DNA of 64,000 bases from Nitrosopumilus sp. (GCA_965224195.1 OZ245040.1:1696001-1760000); one strand, 5' to 3'; shown: positions 2,491-53,082, counted from the stretch's first letter. Program-made: numbers and translations. Notes: generated from the letters alone by a model not told the origin.

Positions 2491-2970
2491 TTATTTTAAA
2501 TTTTCAACAATTTGTTTGTTTTCTTTTAATTCAGACACTACATCCATTACCATTTTTAGATCTAAATTATATTCATTAGCCATATCACTTGGATAAAATA
2601 TTTGACCTACGCTAATTTCTTTTAATATTATCTTTTTCACACTTTCTTTATCTAAATCAAAATTGTCCCCGCTAGTATTTTCTTGCATTTGAATTAAGCC
2701 ATAACTTTCTATCATTTGCTGTGTTTTGTCATTATTTTTTAATACCCTTTCTATCAAATCACGTAATTCAATTCTTAGACACCTAAAGTTATCCAAGTCA
2801 GTGTGTGCAGTGTTTTGAAATTCTTTTTTTATGTATTCCAATGTATGCATATGCTGTTCGTGTACCATTTCAGTTTTATCTGTAGATAATCGTGTCATGT
2901 TTTGTCTGCCATATGTTTCTTCTGGTGTTCCTGGCGTAACTGCAGGGGTCGTAAAAGATAATCGTGTCAT
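2491..2970 (-). CDS. Hypothetical protein with C-terminal winged-HTH-like segment; N-terminus extended 24 aa by a 72-bp insertion/duplication
   Basis: FYPSDMANEYNLDLKMVMDVVSELKENKQI; duplicated MTRLS start. Confidence 0.6.
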   Translation of the reverse strand: MTRLSFTTPAVTPGTPEETYGRQNMTRLSTDKTEMVHEQHMHTLEYIKKEFQNTAHTDLDNFRCLRIELRDLIERVLKNNDKTQQMIESYGLIQMQENTSGDNFDLDKESVKKIILKEISVGQIFYPSDMANEYNLDLKMVMDVVSELKENKQIVENLK

Positions 2971-2991
2971 GTTTTGTCTGCCATATGTTTC
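2884..2991. repeat. 36-bp perfect direct repeat (2884-2919, 2956-2991) around a 36-bp unique insert
   Basis: AGATAATCGTGTCATGTTTTGTCTGCCATATGTTTC twice; insert TTCTGGTGTTCCTGGCGTAACTGCAGGGGTCGTAAA. Confidence 0.95.
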
Positions 2992-11463: not shown

Positions 11464-12822
11464 TTGAGTATGATGGTGAAAGAAAGTAACAACAGAAAAC
11501 AAAAAGGAATTCAAATATTTTCAAAGACTAATTCAATAAAGAAAATCTCAAAGAACCATTTTATAGTAAAATCATCCACATCAGATAAAACATATCATGT
11601 AAGACGATTGCCTGACACCGAAATTTTTACTTGTGAATGTGCTGATTTTCATTACCGTTTAAGAAAACTAGATGATAAGAAATGCAAACATATCATTTCA
11701 TGTATGTTATTACAAGAAAGTATTCTATCACAAAGCTACATAGAGCAAACACAACAGTCTAAACTTTGTCCAAAATGTTATTCAACTACAATTATAAAAA
11801 ATGGTTTTAGAAAAATTAAGAACAATACCAAGAGACAGAAATACAAATGTAGAAAATGTACATACAGATTCATTTTAGGTGAGAATGGATTTTCTAATGT
11901 AACATCTGATCCTAAAATAATTTCAGAATCCTTGAATTTGGTAATGAATGGATTGTCATATCGCAATGTTGCAAGACACATCTATTCTACACATCAAGTA
12001 AAGATTAGCCATCCTACGATTGTGAATTGGGTAAAAAAATACACCAATCTGATTAAAGAATATGTTGAAACATTTAGTCCTAAATTATCTGATGTTTGGA
12101 GTTTGGATGAGATGGTTCTAAATGTTAAAAATACAAAGAAAACTGGAAAAGGATTTCATGATTGGCTATGGAGCATCATTGATCCTAAAACTAGATTTCT
12201 TATTGCTACAGAGGTTTCCAAGAAAAGAGAAATTGCAGATGCTAAAAAGATTATTTCAAGTGGCAAAAAACTAGTATCTAAAAATCCAAATTATATCTTG
12301 ACTGATTGTTTGAACTCTTACCAAGCTGCAATTAGAGAGGAATTTCAAAATAAAACTGCACATATCAAAACTAAATCACTCAAAGATGGGTTTGTGAACA
12401 GACCTATTGAGAGATATCACAATGAGATTAGAGAGAACTTAAAGGCAAGACGTGGATTGGGTAATGATAAATCTGCTCAGAATTTTGCTGAATTACATAA
12501 AATTCATCACAACTATGTCCGACCACATCAAGGATTAGATGGTAAGACACCAGCTCAAGCTGCAAATATTGATTTGAATCTAGGTGATGACAAGTATCTA
12601 GATCTGATTAAACATGCATCAAAAAAACCAAACTTTGTAAACAATCTAGGAAAGAGAATTGAAATGGTCACAATAATCAATGAAGGTGATTCAATCAAGG
12701 TTACCCCTACAGGATGGATTCAAAAGCACATATGGAGAGAGATTAATGATATTCTAAGATTACATGAGTTTAGCTGGTTGTCAAGTGGCAAAGATAGTTG
12801 CTGGATGAAATTAATTATTTAA
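11464..12822 (+). CDS. DDE transposase (SWIM Zn finger + Zn ribbon + HTH + IS6/rve-like DDE domain)
   Basis: CECAD..CKH, CPKC..CRKC, WSLDEM, LTDCLNSY, PIERYHNEIR, HNYVRPHQGLDGKTPA. Confidence 0.9.
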   Translation: MSMMVKESNNRKQKGIQIFSKTNSIKKISKNHFIVKSSTSDKTYHVRRLPDTEIFTCECADFHYRLRKLDDKKCKHIISCMLLQESILSQSYIEQTQQSKLCPKCYSTTIIKNGFRKIKNNTKRQKYKCRKCTYRFILGENGFSNVTSDPKIISESLNLVMNGLSYRNVARHIYSTHQVKISHPTIVNWVKKYTNLIKEYVETFSPKLSDVWSLDEMVLNVKNTKKTGKGFHDWLWSIIDPKTRFLIATEVSKKREIADAKKIISSGKKLVSKNPNYILTDCLNSYQAAIREEFQNKTAHIKTKSLKDGFVNRPIERYHNEIRENLKARRGLGNDKSAQNFAELHKIHHNYVRPHQGLDGKTPAQAANIDLNLGDDKYLDLIKHASKKPNFVNNLGKRIEMVTIINEGDSIKVTPTGWIQKHIWREINDILRLHEFSWLSSGKDSCWMKLII

Positions 12823-12843
12823 TTTTTTATTTCGATATATAGT

Positions 12844-12999
12844 ATGTTTAACATGGAAGTATCAGATCAAGAAATAGTCAAAAGGCTAAGAGAAACAATA
12901 GACTTTCTCAAAGTAGAATCCATTGGCGGTGTGTGGAATACGCCTCAACTAATTGAGATGCTGGAGGATTTATTCAAAGAAAATTCTAAAACTTCATAA
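12844..12999 (+). CDS. Conserved 51-aa transposon accessory protein (absent from ORF track)
   Basis: MFNMEVSDQEIVKRLRETIDFLKVESIGGVWNTPQLIEMLEDLFKENSKTS; homolog at 51710-51877. Confidence 0.75.
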   Translation: MFNMEVSDQEIVKRLRETIDFLKVESIGGVWNTPQLIEMLEDLFKENSKTS

Positions 13000-22525: not shown

Positions 22526-22774
22526 GATTTCTATAGCAGTGGTATGTCAATAATCGATAATATGCCGGTTTATGCATTTAGAGTGAGCCCCTGTTTTTGG
22601 TAACCACTTTTTGCATAATCTTGCATGCAGTTGATATCATTTATGTGTCATCACCCACAACTCCATAAGCTCATCGGGGGCCTGCCATTTTCTGGGAAAT
22701 AATGAACTGTCAAGTCTTTTGCTCCTGCAAAGTTATCCAGATTATAAGAAAATAAATCACTGTATATTGGATGC

Positions 22775-22886
22775 CATGGCACCTCGATTGCATCACTGCC
22801 ATCCATTGCAGCCTGATCAAAATCCTTCAGCCGCATCATCATTTGCTGCATGGCACCTTGATTGCATCACTGCCATCCATTGCAGC
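22775..22886. repeat. 38-bp direct repeat (one mismatch; 22775-22812, 22849-22886) around a 36-bp unique insert
   Basis: CATGGCACCTYGATTGCATCACTGCCATCCATTGCAGC twice; insert CTGATCAAAATCCTTCAGCCGCATCATCATTTGCTG. Confidence 0.95.
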
Positions 22887-47252: not shown

Positions 47253-47552
47253 TAAGGAATATTCTGATTCTGCAATATCTATTGCATTTTTGACCTCATC
47301 AAGAGTGAAGGGTTTTTGAATAAATGCAGAAACACCAGAACAAATAGTTTTGTTTACACGGGTAGTTGTTTTTTCATCAGCCGTGATTACTACAATTTGT
47401 AAATCAATTTTTTCATTTAATAACTTTGTAGCAACAACATCACCTTCAAGATCAGGCAATCCCATGTCAAGTAAAACTACAGGGTTTCTGTTTTCAGAAA
47501 ATAGTTTTTTGCATCCCTTCACTCCATCTTTTCCATTTTCAAAAATAGGAAT
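47244..47552 (-). pseudogene. CheY-like response regulator, 5'-truncated
   Basis: VVLLDMGLPD.EG, VVITA, FIQKPF; N-terminal acidic strand missing. Confidence 0.75.
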
Positions 47553-47681
47553 CTATTTTTCAAGACATGGGATACTGCACACCATTTCTGCCAAAGAAAT
47601 AAAAGGCCATCCTAACTTTCCAAAGTTTGTAGATGTGTTTGAAAAATTGGCTACTGTGATATTCAGCAAAAACAATGAGGA

Positions 47682-48289
47682 TTGATTGTTATATCTCATC
47701 TGCGTGGAACATATGAAAGTCTTTCAAAATACTATCTACGTGAAGCAAGAGGATGTCTAGAATCCAAATCATATAGAATGGCAATAGTATCTGCTGCAAC
47801 TTCAATACATTTGGCATCTTACTTCATTTTGTTGGCCAGAGGTAAATATCGTCAAGAAGACAGAGTTGCAAAATTCTATAACATCATACAAGAAATCAAA
47901 CAAAAAGATAAGTGGAAGCAAATTGAAGATGACATAGAGTAGTTGATGAATGCAAGAAACGCAATTGCGCATCCAGAAGAATGGGTTGTTCCGGAAACCA
48001 AGACAGACAGCACTACAGGACAAACAACTTTCACAGCAAAAGTAGAAATTGATGATCTTCCTCATATCAAAAAACAGGTTTTACTTTGTCTATGACGAAT
48101 GAATTAGGAAGTCTGTCAAAATTGGCAAAAGACGCAGTAAAAAAATCTGAAAGTATTTTGCTGAATTTTGGGTTTGCAGTAGAAACTAGTTACGTGAATA
48201 AAATGAAAGAATACTTAGAAAAAGAAATTCAAAGAATGACAGGCCAATCGGTAGATTTGGAGAATCTTCCCGAACAAAACCAAGCATAA
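47682..48289 (+). pseudogene. HEPN-domain protein with in-frame TAG and frameshift
   Basis: EARGCLESKSYRMAIV...DIE*LMNARNAIAHP (Rx4H). Confidence 0.6.
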
Positions 48290-48304
48290 TTTATTTGAAT
48301 GACT

Positions 48305-48730
48305 CTAATTTATCAATCCAAGTTTGAGGAAAGCTGTATTTTTGGCGCCATGAATAATCAAATCAACATAATCTAGATGTGATTGAACAAAATCTGTTTT
48401 ATTTACAACTACATATGTAATCATATCGTCAGATAATTTGATTTGTTTGTAAGCTCCTGATTTTACACCTTCCTTGATATCTAAAACATCTAGATCTTCT
48501 TTTGCTACGTCAAATACAACACTACAACAAAAATCACCAAGACTGTAAATAACATCCGCAACACCACCATTTCTATTAACAGATTTTCTAGTGAATCCAA
48601 GTTTGTAATTTTCTAAACGAAATAGTTTTGGGTTTGTGAGTTTTGGAACAGACAAATGTCTTTCCTTGCACCAATCAATCAAATTATTGTGGTCCAAGTT
48701 AGAACCATATGCAAAATATTTCATAATCAT
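48305..48730 (-). CDS. Gamma-glutamylcyclotransferase-family protein
   Basis: YFAYGSNL, GGVADV, LDIKEG. Confidence 0.85.
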   Translation of the reverse strand: MIMKYFAYGSNLDHNNLIDWCKERHLSVPKLTNPKLFRLENYKLGFTRKSVNRNGGVADVIYSLGDFCCSVVFDVAKEDLDVLDIKEGVKSGAYKQIKLSDDMITYVVVNKTDFVQSHLDYVDLIIHGAKNTAFLKLGLIN

Positions 48731-48833
48731 ATTATGTTCGAGTTTATCAAATCTTTTTCGCCTTGCTCATTGTCCTTCTTCTCATCACCATATCTTCAAA
48801 TACTTTAACAGCCTAATCCATTACGAAGATTCT

Positions 48834-49382
48834 ATGACAGAGTATTATTTGGATATTGAAACTTATTCCCCTGGCATGAGGCCAGATCCAGCTAATGATA
48901 AGATCATTACAATACAATATCAACAGGTTTCTACCGAGACAGGCGAACCCATAGGAGATTTGAAAATTCTAACCGAGTGGGAATTAGGTTCTGAAAAGGA
49001 ATTATTATCTAAATTTAAGGATGTCTTCTTGACTGAAAGTGATTTTAACTTCATCTCGATTGGAGTAAATCTTTATGAGTTTGATTTCGTAGCGTTAGCA
49101 AGTAAGTTCAACAAATATTTTGACCTTAGTTTGGGGTTACAGTTTTTCAGAGACAGGATAGCAATTGACCTAAAACCCATTTTAATAATGATGAACAATG
49201 GAAGATTGAAAGGCTATACTGATATTCTGGGCAAAAAACATTCAGGAAATGTGATCAAAGAATGGTACGAACAGAAAAAGCATGATAAGATAATTGATTA
49301 TATCAAAGATGAGGCTGAACACTTTATTGAAAAATACCAGATTTTAAAGAAAAAACTCCCTAAAATCGAATTTTCAGAATAA
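48834..49382 (+). CDS. DEDD/RNase H-like 3'-5' exonuclease
   Basis: YYLDIET, IITIQYQ, FDF, IDL, YIKDE; ATG at 48834. Confidence 0.8.
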   Translation: MTEYYLDIETYSPGMRPDPANDKIITIQYQQVSTETGEPIGDLKILTEWELGSEKELLSKFKDVFLTESDFNFISIGVNLYEFDFVALASKFNKYFDLSLGLQFFRDRIAIDLKPILIMMNNGRLKGYTDILGKKHSGNVIKEWYEQKKHDKIIDYIKDEAEHFIEKYQILKKKLPKIEFSE

Positions 49383-49572
49383 CACTAGAAAAAATTCAAT
49401 TAATTCCCAAATTATGTAAAATTTGTAATTTGTACAATATTACCCAGTTCAAATCTCAACAGATTTGAATTCTTGATTTTATCAAATTTTGAAAAGTATA
49501 GTACGAGAAGTTATTATGTATTATTATTTTGGGTTCTGTCAACTTGTTAGCACATAAGTCAAAATCTTTATA

Positions 49573-49681
49573 CTGTTCAATCTCAGGAGCTTTTCAACAG
49601 GGTGTTAATCTTCTTAGCCCGATGAAAGTACCCCTCATTTGTAAGCTGTTCAATCTCAGGAGCTTTTCAACAGGGTGTTAA
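49573..49681. repeat. 36-bp perfect direct repeat (49573-49608, 49646-49681) around a 37-bp unique insert inside the left TIR
   Basis: CTGTTCAATCTCAGGAGCTTTTCAACAGGGTGTTAA twice; insert TCTTCTTAGCCCGATGAAAGTACCCCTCATTTGTAAG. Confidence 0.95.
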
Positions 49682-49711
49682 ATTAGAGACTTTTGCTGTT
49701 AAGTTAGGTGC

Positions 49712-50416
49712 TTAATTCAAATCAAGTGGTTGCCAGTCTGAAAAATCTACATCATCATACTCGTATTCTTCATTGTCATTGTACAACCATTCGCCATTCT
49801 CAAATACTGCAATACCGCCAAATACCTTCTTGGGCTTGTTATCTCTGATGTATCTTGATAATGCTTCAGCCTTTGGCTTGGCAATCTTAGCTGTAAATCC
49901 TGCTTTTGTATCGTAGAGACCTATTCTGCCATCATTCATACGAATAACAAAGTCAACATAAAATGCGTGAGACTCTCCAGTTTCAAGATCATCATATTTT
50001 ATGGCAAAGTATTTCCTATCATTAACCTCATTTTTGAACCACCATTTTACATTATTTTCTTCTTCAAGGAAATTCATAAATCGAATCTCATTTTGTATAT
50101 CTGTTTTGATATAAGCTGGTGACATTATGCATTTTTTGTAGTCTTTTTTGTCATAGATTTTGATATATTCTGTATTTTCTGGTATGTTCCATTTTTGAAT
50201 ATCTTCTGTTTCGCGATTGATTTTTTCAACAATATCTCGGTTAAATTGAGATTTTGATTCAGATATTGCCCTGATAAAATGATCCTTATTTTTTGTAGAC
50301 AGTGTTATGTTTGCCATATCCATAAGATCAGTTACTTTGGTATTTTTCTCAAAAAATTGGTGAATGCATCTTTTTATGACTCCATGAGAGTGTTCTTTTG
50401 CAAAAGGTTCCGTCAT
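49712..50416 (-). pseudogene. Type III restriction enzyme Res subunit, C-terminal endonuclease fragment
   Basis: EIRFMNFLE...WWFKN....YFAIKY...FYVDFVIRMNDGRIGLYDTK; helicase part absent. Confidence 0.75.
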
Positions 50417-50422
50417 CTCTCT

Positions 50423-51577
50423 TGCAAATGCATCAAATCTGTTATTCTCTTACAGGACAAAATTAGCATAGAGAACAAAATTGAAAGAGTGGAATTACCT
50501 CAAGTATGTCCTAGATGCAGTAGTACGACAATCAAAAAAAACGGATTCAGAAAGCTAAAGAATGGAACAAGACGACAGATGTATTGCTGTAAGCAATGCA
50601 GCTACAAATTCATTCTAGGCGAGAATGGATTCTCCAAAGTTTCATCTGATCCTAAGATTATATCTGAATCACTAAACTTGGTCATGTCTGGAATGTCATA
50701 CAGGGCAATTTCAAGGCACATCTATTCTACTCATCAAATCAAAATATCTCATGTGTCTGTGAACAGATGGATAGCAAAAAACACTGAGATAATCAAAGAA
50801 TATATAGATTCTTTGAATCCTGAAACTTCTGATGTCTGGAGCTTAGATGAAATGTATCTCAATGTAAAAAATACAAAGACGGGAAAAGGTTTTCATGATT
50901 GGCTTTGGTCAATAATCGATCCTAAAACTAGATTCTTGATTGCAACTGAAGTTTCAAAGAAAAGAGAAATTTCAGATGCAAGAAAGATTATTGCAAGTGG
51001 CAAGAAACTAATCTCAAAAAACCCAAACTATGTTTTGACGGACTGTCTTAATTCCTACCAAGAAGCAATAAAAAAAGAGTTTGAAAACAGGACTGCACAT
51101 ATCAAAATAAAATCACTAAAGGAAGGATTTGTAAATAGACCAATAGAAAGATATCACAATGAAATTAGAGAAAGACTAAAAGCTAGACGAGGATTAGGAA
51201 ATGATGAATCCGCTCAAAACTTTGCAGAGTTGCTCAAAATCAACCACAACTTTGTAAAACCACATCAAGGATTAGATGGTAAAACACCAGCTCAAGCTGC
51301 AAATATTGATTTGAATCTTGGAGATGACAAGCACATGGATTTGATAAAACAAGCTGGAACCAAAGTCAATTTTGTAAATAATCTGGGGAAACGAATCAAC
51401 AAAGTAACTATAGTAAATGAGGGAGATTCCATCAAAATAACTCCCAAATGTTGGATCGATAAACACATCTGGCGAGAGATTAATGATATTCTAAAACTAC
51501 ATCAATTTGCATGGCTGTCAAACGGTAAGGATAGTTGTTGGCTCAAGCTAAGTTTCCTAAACTTTTTGTATGTGTGA
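50423..51577 (+). pseudogene. DDE transposase paralog lacking its start and most of the SWIM finger
   Basis: Homology to 11464-12822 starts at CKCIKSVILLQ; WSLDEM, LTDCLNSY and PIERYHNEIR intact. Confidence 0.85.
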
Positions 51578-51591
51578 AATTTATCAAAATC

Positions 51592-51690
51592 ATGAAAACA
51601 TTTTGTAAATGCGGATGTCAAACACCACTAACTGATTACGAATATCGTAAATTTTCAGGATATAAAAGGGGACATGAACCACTACCATAA
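51592..51690 (+). CDS. 32-aa CxCGC...GH zinc-binding mini-protein
   Basis: MKTFCKCGCQTPLTDYEYRKFSGYKRGHEPLP. Confidence 0.5.
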   Translation: MKTFCKCGCQTPLTDYEYRKFSGYKRGHEPLP

Positions 51691-51709
51691 TTTTATTCAA
51701 TGAATAGTC

Positions 51710-51877
51710 ATGTTAGGTATAGAAGTATCAGATCAAGAGATAGTTAAAAGACTAAAGGAAACCATAGAATTTCTTAAAGTGGAATCTATTGGTGGTATGT
51801 GGAATACACCTCAACTAATTGATATGCTTGAGGACTTGCTTAAGGAGGATTCCAAGATTTACAAAAACAATAATTAA
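51710..51877 (+). CDS. Conserved 55-aa transposon accessory protein (absent from ORF track)
   Basis: MLGIEVSDQEIVKRLKETIEFLKVESIGGMWNTPQLIDMLEDLLKEDSKIYKNNN; homolog of 12844-12999. Confidence 0.75.
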   Translation: MLGIEVSDQEIVKRLKETIEFLKVESIGGMWNTPQLIDMLEDLLKEDSKIYKNNN

Positions 51878-51990
51878 AAATTCCAGTTATTTTTTCAATA
51901 TGAAAGCACCTAACTTAACAGCAAAAGTCTCTAATTTAACACCCTGTTGAAAAGCTCTGGAGACTGAACAGTGTATAGTTTTGTATTGAA

Positions 51991-53082
51991 CTATGGATTT
52001 ATTACAGCACGCCCAATGATTTTTCGAGCTTTAAGATCTTCAAGGGCAGTATTTGCATCTTCAAGAGAATATCTTTTAGAGATAACTGGATTAATTACTC
52101 CTTTTCTTGCAAGATCAAGTAGTTCTACCATATCATTATAATTTCCAGTGTATGCACCTTGAATGGTAATTGATTTTAGTGGAATTGTCACAAGAGACAT
52201 TTCTAGGGATCCTCCAAATAATCCAACAAGTATTATATTTCCTCTTTTTCGTATTACGCCCAATGCTGTTTTAACAGTTGGAGGTGCATTTACAAAATCA
52301 ATAACACTATCAACTCCCTTACCATTAGAAATGGAAATGATTTTCTCAACAGGAGACCCAGTTCCACTAGATAGAGAACCAACTATACTAGTATTTACAA
52401 CAAAATCTGCTCCCATCTTTTTTGCAGCGTCAAATTTTTTATCATCATTGTCAATGCAAATAATTTTGGCTTTTGTTATTGCTTTAGCAATTTGAATTGC
52501 CATTAATCCTAGACCGCCAGCTCCAATTATCATCAAAAACTCGGGTGAATTTGTATTTGCCTTTTTTACAGCATTATATGCTGTTAATCCAGAACAAGCA
52601 AGGGAAGTAGCAGCATCAGGATCGACACCGTCAAGTTTTGCCAAATATTTAGAATCAGGAACTAAAGTGTAATCAGCATAGCCGCCATCTTGAAAAAGAC
52701 CCATAGATTTTGGTGCATCACATAAATTTTCGTTTCCCACTTTACATGCAGGACATTCCCCACAACCCATCCAAGGGAACACTAGAACATCATCACCTAC
52801 TGAAACATTAGAAACATTTTCTCCAATTTCTTCAATAGTTCCAACAATTTCATGGCCAGGAGTTACAGGATATTTTACACCTCTATCGGTGACTTTCAAA
52901 AATTGACCATCTCCAAGATCATATCCACCCTCCCACAAGTGTAAATCACTGTGACAGACGCCTTCAGATTTTATCTTTAGTAGAACCTGAGTTCCATGGG
53001 GTTTTGGATTTTCAGATTCAGTTATAGTAAGAGGTTCATTTGGGCCTGGAATTCGGGCAGATTTCATAGTTCGATTTTCCAC
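51991..53082 (-). CDS. adh: Zn-dependent alcohol dehydrogenase
   Basis: GVCHSDLH, GHE, CGECPAC...C, GAGGLG. Confidence 0.95.
   Translation of the reverse strand: MENRTMKSARIPGPNEPLTITESENPKPHGTQVLLKIKSEGVCHSDLHLWEGGYDLGDGQFLKVTDRGVKYPVTPGHEIVGTIEEIGENVSNVSVGDDVLVFPWMGCGECPACKVGNENLCDAPKSMGLFQDGGYADYTLVPDSKYLAKLDGVDPDAATSLACSGLTAYNAVKKANTNSPEFLMIIGAGGLGLMAIQIAKAITKAKIICIDNDDKKFDAAKKMGADFVVNTSIVGSLSSGTGSPVEKIISISNGKGVDSVIDFVNAPPTVKTALGVIRKRGNIILVGLFGGSLEMSLVTIPLKSITIQGAYTGNYNDMVELLDLARKGVINPVISKRYSLEDANTALEDLKARKIIGRAVINP

Follow-up and report, generated by a model that had tools for sequence, protein, structure and literature searches.

Spacer-sized inserts between repeat-length duplications at a transposon end and at other sites of a Nitrosopumilus genome

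Spacers can be integrated outside CRISPR arrays. Off-target spacer integration was described in E. coli over-producing Cas1-Cas2, where it created "neo-CRISPR" units (Nivala, Shipman and Church 2018, Nat Microbiol 3:310; as related in excerpts of 10.1101/148544 and PMC7054753). For two other species, the excerpt of 10.1101/148544 mentions only "circumstantial evidence". In vitro, Cas1-Cas2 of P. furiosus performs full-site integration at non-CRISPR sites, at G/C positions one repeat length apart and with repeat-like bases (excerpt of PMC6698737). Off-target acquisition is also one of three origins proposed for isolated arrays (Shmakov et al. 2020, CRISPR J 3:535; as related in an excerpt of PMC13142298).

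The locus described here lies in Nitrosopumilus sp., in a window, that is, the whole stretch of DNA that was analysed, of 64,000 nucleotides (GCA_965224195.1 OZ245040.1:1696001-1760000). A 37-bp insert sits there between two copies of a 36-bp target, inside a terminal inverted repeat (TIR) of a transposon. It shares with the E. coli units, as excerpted, a spacer-sized insert, a repeat-length duplication, a non-CRISPR chromosomal site and a host with Cas1-Cas2. Unlike those units, the events here occurred naturally and have become fixed, and one archaeal genome holds about 34 of them. They also belong to a host with 36-37-bp repeat systems (I-G / I-B-like), and each holds a single spacer, with no growth.

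The likeness to the P. furiosus reaction lies in opposite-strand points one repeat length apart, a G favoured at the attacked position, guidance by the border bases and a leader that is not needed (PMC6698737, in the part available). That system, with its 30-bp repeat, was studied in vitro with plasmid targets, whereas here there are in vivo genomic scars with duplications of 34-39 bp and a G-N-T-G/A-C/A-A-A motif. The mini-arrays of Shmakov et al. 2020, as far as PMC13142298 is excerpted, likewise have two repeats and one spacer, lie far from cas genes and have a proposed off-target origin. Off-target spacer integration is already known, and the TIR event is one more case. More interesting than this single case is how many such events one wild genome holds. 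The literature searches turned up no natural genome in which ectopic units are fixed by the dozen, some of them disrupting genes and some with self-derived inserts; this is a weak negative, with the key papers (Nivala 2018, Shmakov 2020) known through citations.

The transposon end and its insert

The element that carries the insert spans 49569-51975. It consists of a DDE transposase, a 55-aa ORF, an opposite-strand 234-aa ORF and two 72-bp TIRs. G177, a genome of the same genus, holds an intact 5.9-kb relative with the same 72-bp TIRs (L034, G177:C1:1827040-1832921), to which the window copy is compared below.

49569..49572, plus strand: outermost 4 nt of the left TIR; TATA here, TACA at the other ends (six-end alignment)
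49573..49608, plus strand: duplicated target, copy 1 (TIR nt 5-40); 36/36 identical to copy 2
49609..49645, plus strand: spacer-like 37-bp insert; 43% GC; single occurrence in the genome
49646..49681, plus strand: duplicated target, copy 2; 36/36 identical to copy 1
49646..49713, plus strand: left TIR from nt 5 to nt 72, running on into the element interior; 96% complementary to 51904-51971
49712..50416, minus strand: 234-aa C-terminal piece of the Res subunit of a type III restriction system; its DNA is 91% identical to the 3' part of the gene for the 731-aa ResIII of G177
50443..50453, no strand: deletion junction, where ~3.5 kb of the interior of the G177 element is missing; BLAST pieces stop at query 944 and resume at 954
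50453..51577, plus strand: DDE transposase, IS6/IS240-like; 5'-truncated by ~80 codons relative to the 449-aa gene of G177
51710..51877, plus strand: conserved 55-aa ORF; near-identical ORF in G177 (L034 7156-7323)
51904..51975, minus strand: right TIR of 72 bp, showing the site in its unoccupied form (alignment of ends)

Both 36-bp copies read CTGTTCAATCTCAGGAGCTTTTCAACAGGGTGTTAA and agree at 36/36 positions, by sequence reading and by a repeat finder run over window positions 49400-52100. Their start-to-start spacing is 73, and an exact 36-mer repeat such as this cannot have arisen by chance. The bases that flank the copies are unlike, A/G on the 5' side and T/A on the 3' side, which fixes the duplication at exactly 36 bp and the insert at exactly 37 bp. 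The duplication starts 4 nt inside the left TIR. The left arm (49646-49713) agrees with the right arm (51904-51971) at 96% over 68 nt.

The original prediction, made from the sequence of the window, had placed a 37-bp insert within a 36-bp target duplication and had called the partner TIR empty; this is confirmed to the base. The 68/72 match that it gave for the left and right ends holds as well, being made up of the 68-nt arm and four outer bases (TATA vs TACA), and the reverse complement of the duplicated 36-mer does end in ATTGAACAG. It had further called the target an imperfect palindrome. The two parts, CTGTT (nt 1-5) and AACAG (nt 24-28), are present, but they lie inside the duplication and do not span it.

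Six ends were aligned: the two left copies and the right end of the window, both ends of the G177 element and one end from G013. The four other ends, namely the window right end, both G177 ends and the G013 end, have a single copy and no insert (4/4); all of them read (T)ACA-CTGTT... once. The two left copies agree throughout and the right end differs from them at 3/36 positions, so the duplication was made locally from the left end. Judged by this alignment, the insert and the second copy are derived, as had been proposed. The possibility that the duplication is the normal structure of a left end fails at the same point, since it occurs in 0/4 other ends. The left TIR is 90-94% identical to the G177 TIRs. 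The whole 2.07-Mb genome has three matches to the TIR, the two ends and the extra copy, and none elsewhere.

The structure is also present in sequencing data. Logan contigs of X21 and X22 include a 97-nt unitig that spans copy 1, the insert and copy 2 (49579-49675), at a depth of 65 (X21) and 326 (X22) vs 80 and 332 in the flank. Since the unitig spans the unit at near-flank depth, the structure is no assembly artefact; X21 and X22 may be the source data of the assembly itself and would then be no independent evidence. The contigs of these two runs, which drop rare variants, report the occupied form only and no deletion joint. In run X1, three metagenome contigs begin the TIR at 49646, preceded by unrelated sequence ending in ...TTTACA, in agreement with an unoccupied single-copy end.

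A source for the TIR 37-mer was sought widely. None was found in its own genome, and exact scans of viral, genome and metagenome contigs gave no match. Against phages, blastn gave only chance matches of 17-27 nt at E=6, and none of 400 other family genomes contained the 37-mer when up to 3 mismatches were allowed. The search for a source that had been suggested along with the original prediction thus came back empty for own genome, viral and metagenome contigs, phages and family genomes alike. With no protospacer for the 37-mer, no PAM is readable for the TIR insert.

One alternative holds that a second insertion of the same transposon, nested or adjacent, was followed by a deletion, so that the outer 36 bp are a remnant end and the 37 bp captured flank. 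The outer copy does keep the context of a true terminus, with TATA+CTGTT like TACA+CTGTT, and inverted-repeat pairing with the right flank goes out as far as 49562. Against this, the copies are 36/36 identical whereas the own left and right ends of the element differ at 3/36, and the genome has no other copy of the TIR. Captured chromosomal flank should recur in relatives, but the 37-mer is absent from their flanks, from the G177 element and from the 400 family genomes. The dimensions of the unit are, moreover, those of a genome-wide class of 34 units described below, mostly in ordinary genes without a nearby transposon. A nested insertion is largely refuted, and we regard it as very improbable.

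The transposase passes PF13610 DDE_Tnp_IS240 (6.6e-15; 55.9 vs a cut-off of 27). Against NCBIfam IS6 NF033587 it scores 107.2 bits, under the cut-off of 125, so it is named IS6/IS240-like only. The 234-aa Res fragment is without the N-terminal helicase part, which was deleted, and has no Pfam match. For the 55-aa ORF no family match was found. The genes of the G177 element code for a 731-aa ResIII helicase, a 486-aa N6_N4 methylase, a 449-aa transposase and the 55-aa ORF. With its helicase and methylase, the element is a transposon whose cargo is a type III restriction-modification system. The G177 transposase has an N-terminal zinc-finger-like extension.

Between the two BLAST pieces, G177 has 3.55 kb. 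The ~3.5-kb deletion left only a minor part of res, nothing of mod and a transposase gene short of its first ~80 codons. Judged by these losses, the window copy is already decayed, which makes a possible disabling of the end by the insertion moot. The window copy of the transposon shows no evident target-site duplication. The G177 element is flanked by a 9-bp direct repeat (CTGGTAAGT), whose copies stand 7 and 14 nt away from the TIRs on the outer side and do not abut them. The transposon is part of a strain-specific stretch of ~4.4 kb (47553-51983), which is absent in G162 and G013.

The same stretch also holds an AIG2-like ORF and a 248-aa ORF without a family match. It is bordered by a conserved gene that ends near 47552 and by a zinc alcohol dehydrogenase gene (51991-53082). 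A related second transposase copy is found at window positions 11785-12989, with 76% DNA identity over ~1 kb to the gene at 50453-51577; this copy also matches the region downstream of that gene at 80%.

The unit might instead be a mini-CRISPR array borne by the transposon, whose repeat-spacer-repeat would have the Cas proteins of the host produce a guide, for instance one directed at a competitor. One-spacer mini-arrays do occur on mobile elements (excerpt of PMC8616872), yet in the cases excerpted there the repeats are identical or very similar to those of the host, and the TIR 36-mer is not. Nor does the unit travel with the element: the intact G177 copy and the other ends are without it, and its carrier is a decayed copy. 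The 37-mer has no target in the viral, genome and metagenome contigs, the phages or the 400 family genomes. A guide-producing unit is hardly credible here.

Adaptation machinery and isolated units across the chromosome

The genome has three cas1 and three cas2 genes. Each pair adjoins a large array, and none of the three cas1 stands alone. All three adaptation modules have a Cas4 or a Cas4-Cas1 fusion, and two I-B-type cas sets with Cas4 are present besides the type I-G set.

Array A, C1 707205-713740: 36-bp repeat, 90 identical copies; Cas4g/Cas1g fusion, Cas3g, Csb1, Csb2 (type I-G)
Array B, C1 942056-946529: 30-bp repeat, 68 copies, spacers of 36-37 bp; Cas4 and Cas1b
Array C, C1 1457181-1466783: 37-bp repeat, 132 copies, spacers of 35-36 bp; I-B-like Cas7, Cas5, Cas3, Cas1 and Cas4

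Just upstream of the array C cas operon lies an IS6-like transposase (G000:C1:1448000-1449100; L048:10766-11890, minus strand), which scores 95 bits against NF033587, below the cut-off.

Spacers of array A are 37 bp long in 31/89 cases and 36 bp in 30/89, and the modal periods of array C are 72-73. The TIR unit of 36+37 equals the modal unit of array A, and its period of 73 is also a mode of array C. Its 36-bp duplication has the repeat length of array A (array C: 37 bp); its 37-bp insert has the modal spacer length of array A and is in the range of arrays B and C.

The 37-bp insert is very probably a prespacer that the host Cas1-Cas2 integrated into a non-CRISPR site. Integration would have taken place 4 nt inside the left TIR of a decayed transposon, by a mechanism like that of normal adaptation. 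Both 3'-OH ends of the prespacer would attack opposite strands approximately one repeat length apart, and gap repair would then copy the intervening 36 bp on either side of the insert. The candidate complexes are those of the type I-G module by array A (36-bp repeat) and of the I-B-like module by array C (37-bp repeat); neither the duplication length nor the insert length nor the motif separates the two. Module A is located at C1:713999-715900 and module C at C1:1455266-1456443. A dead transposon end is neutral DNA, which is probably why the unit survived there. Of the CRISPR reading in the original prediction, the adaptation geometry, the three cas1/cas2/cas4 modules and the 36/37 match to array A are supported, and the special mimicry by the TIR and its bearing on the origin of repeats are not.

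Isolated exact direct-repeat pairs of at least 20 bp were scanned over the chromosome. There are 96, of which 31 have periods of 69-75 and 55 are coding tandem repeats of 141-156 bp. A near-exact scan (at least 27/30 matches, periods 55-95) peaks at 71-74; the only other peaks, at 60, 78 and 81, are coding tandem repeats. Periods that are not multiples of 3 are almost empty outside 70-76. The near-exact scan has no ectopic peak at the array B period of 66-67, where 1-2 candidates occur. It gives 39 candidates at periods 69-76, and with five dropped as tandem low-complexity repeats, 34 units are left.

Duplications in the 34 units measure 34-39 bp, mostly 35-39, and inserts 32-39 bp. The periods are 73 (n=11), 72 (7), 74 (6), 71 (4), 75 (2), 70 (2), 76 (1) and 69 (1). 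The two copies are identical in 22/34 units, with one mismatch in 10 and two mismatches in 2. Every unit has a single insert, and none has grown into an array. Most lie inside ordinary genes with no transposon nearby. Removing the unit in silico gives a longer ORF at 8 sites, and 10/34 units are multiples of 3 in length. Two sister units are found in the window itself.

2884..2991, no strand: sister unit of a 36-bp copy, a 36-bp insert and a 36-bp copy, in frame inside an ORF
22775..22886 (C1:1718775), no strand: sister unit of 38 + 36 + 38 bp, 1 mismatch between copies

Empty sites in relatives were found for 4/34 units, namely the TIR, E1698884, E1639458 and E1692970. For E1698884, the unit at 2884-2991, the G177 ortholog has one copy and aligns with a gap of exactly 72 nt. 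E1639458 and E1692970 are single-copy in the fetched G233 loci. The fetched relatives have no duplication at any unit. An empty site for the unit at 22775-22886 was not found; none of the 5 relatives searched conserves this region. The only match from that search is a ~100-bp repeat (window ~22570-22680) with 17 matches in G177, scattered over the chromosome at 82-87% identity, which looks like a small dispersed repeat or MITE.

As to position, 11/34 units lie at 682-912 kb, near arrays A and B. Examples of unit sites in G000:C1 are 3949, 173581, 682088, 739057, 886994, 1363425, 1892823 and 2053230. The chromosome is also rich in tandem repeats of 153/156-bp period inside large genes, with 36 isolated exact pairs at period 153 (G000:C1: 532-533, 801, 1410-1416, 1610, 1726 (window ~30400) and 2056 kb). 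Several of these loci share a motif, and by sequence they look like a family of repeat-rich surface-type proteins.

Break repair can insert filler DNA. Replication slippage, template switching or another repair error might therefore have left a local duplication with filler DNA, independently of CRISPR, the more so as the part given here to Cas1 catalysis is only deduced from the scars. A tandem duplication would also repeat the 37-mer, however, and the 37-mer is single. Repair errors would give no sharp peak at 71-75 that matches arrays A and C, with nearly empty neighbouring periods that are not multiples of 3. Nor would they yield inserts of 34-39 nt taken from distant loci with exact borders, which are described in the next section.

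Other genomes bear on the same question. Among 41 sampled genomes of the genus, 13 have cas1. A 400-kb sample of each of three relatives was set against a slice of the same size from G000, and the candidates in the relatives were judged by eye.

G000, slice 1.0-1.4 Mb: three modules; 6 isolated units in 400 kb
G236: only an I-G-like cas4-cas1; 4 plausible units in 400 kb (1-3 mismatches)
G233: only a cas1b-like gene; 1-2 doubtful units in 400 kb (1-3 mismatches)
G202: no cas1 found; 0 units in 400 kb

The link of unit number to cas1 content across these four 400-kb samples is suggestive only. It argues against repair error in that the cas1-less G202 has 0 units, vs 6 in G000 and 4 plausible ones in G236, whose only cas1 is I-G-like. 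With these points taken together, a repair error is quite improbable as the cause, and integration by Cas1-Cas2 is the reading followed below.

Site choice and the origin of the inserts

De novo EM at the duplication ends gives the motif [C/G]T|G-N-T-[G/A]-[C/A]-A-A, with a total LLR of 152.8 vs 105.7 +/- 7.2 (maximum 127) in 30 random sets. The end motif of the targets, G-N-T-G/A-C/A-A-A, resembles the host repeat ends GCTTCAAT / GTTTCAAT. In a non-circular test, the spacer-side ends of repeats A and C were compared at the sites and at random genomic 37-mers. At least 6/8 matches to GCTTCAAT occur at 8/34 sites vs 9.6% of random sites (p=0.009), and at least 6/8 matches to GTTTCAAT at 11/34 sites vs 13.9% (p=0.007). 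The remaining repeat ends show no enrichment at the 34 sites. By this analysis, the enrichment agrees with the behaviour of P. furiosus Cas1-Cas2 at non-CRISPR sites, as far as it is excerpted (PMC6698737).

The TIR site was probably picked for the short motif cTGTTCAAT, which resembles the spacer-side repeat ends. The TIR sequence TGTTCAAT matches both GCTTCAAT and GTTTCAAT at 6/8 positions. Its fit to the motif is only moderate: under a leave-one-out model, a score at least as high is reached by 14% of random genomic 36-mers. Compared at full length with repeats A, B and C in both orientations, the TIR 36-mer scores within the shuffle range.

Palindromy was considered as a targeting feature and rejected. 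The targets are like random sequence, with a mean longest stem of 4.32 vs 4.33 (p=0.41), and the internal 5-bp stem of the TIR is unremarkable, since 37% of random 37-mers have a stem of at least 5 bp.

The original prediction had seen the TIR as a special mimic of a CRISPR repeat. This view is not supported: the TIR is one of ~34 sites, mostly in ordinary genes, and its sequence is neither closer to the repeats at full length nor more palindromic than chance allows. CRISPR repeats reportedly arose from casposons or transposon ends, a model ascribed to Krupovic et al. 2014. The present case is like that model in that a Cas1-family integrase would act at or near the terminal inverted repeat of a mobile element. 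It is unlike it in that the element has a DDE transposase, all three cas1 adjoin arrays and the targets are mostly non-mobile. The transposon end is an ordinary, tolerable target and so gives no evidence for the descent of CRISPR repeats from transposon ends; the bearing on that hypothesis that had been suggested is unsupported.

The origin of the inserts can be traced in part. Full-length matches of 34-39 nt elsewhere on the same chromosome exist for 8/34 inserts. In all 8 units the homology begins and ends at the insert borders; mismatches number 0-2 in 7 of them and more in E1277616. Among canonical spacers, a non-array match longer than 24 nt occurs in 0/287. The data fit the pattern to be expected if self-targeting spacers are purged from arrays and tolerated where they are unused. 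GC content is 40.3% in ectopic inserts and 40-42% in canonical spacers; it is 33.6% in the genome and 43% in the TIR insert. Where the protospacer fixes the borders, the duplication is 34 to 37 bp, a looser ruler than in arrays. No PAM consensus was seen by eye in the flanks of the 8 self protospacers, and at weak-motif sites the orientation is uncertain.

Among the source genes of the self-derived inserts are orc1/cdc6 (195.9 kb), gins51 (207.9 kb), a DUF7482 gene (234.9 kb), a four-copy fn3-repeat gene and a duplicated hsdS. Three of the 8 come from one 40-kb stretch with orc1/cdc6 and gins51 (G000:C1:195937-195966, 207965-207998, 234869-234901). The adaptation machinery may sample DNA close to the origin; the 40-kb region was defined post hoc, and this is a lead only.

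Probable off-target adaptation in a natural genome

The frequency and the cost of off-target integration in nature are little known, and the evidence comes mostly from in vitro work or from E. coli over-producing the proteins. On balance, we lean somewhat towards regarding this genome as a fossil record of frequent ectopic adaptation. It would hold ~34 fixed mis-integrations by Cas1-Cas2 in 2.07 Mb, of which at least 8 break ORFs and about a quarter have self-derived inserts, next to arrays without self spacers.

Dozens of natural events with exact borders would mean that the repeat-length ruler works away from the leader. They also suggest that a short repeat-end motif biases the choice of site, that genes get broken, and that self DNA is sampled often and survives only outside arrays.

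If this reading is true, off-target adaptation acts in nature as a genuine mutational force. The scars would then be an in vivo read-out of what adaptation samples before selection removes self-targeting spacers, and likewise of the intrinsic, leader-independent target motif. Every scar, the one at the transposon end included, would be a possible seed of a new array.
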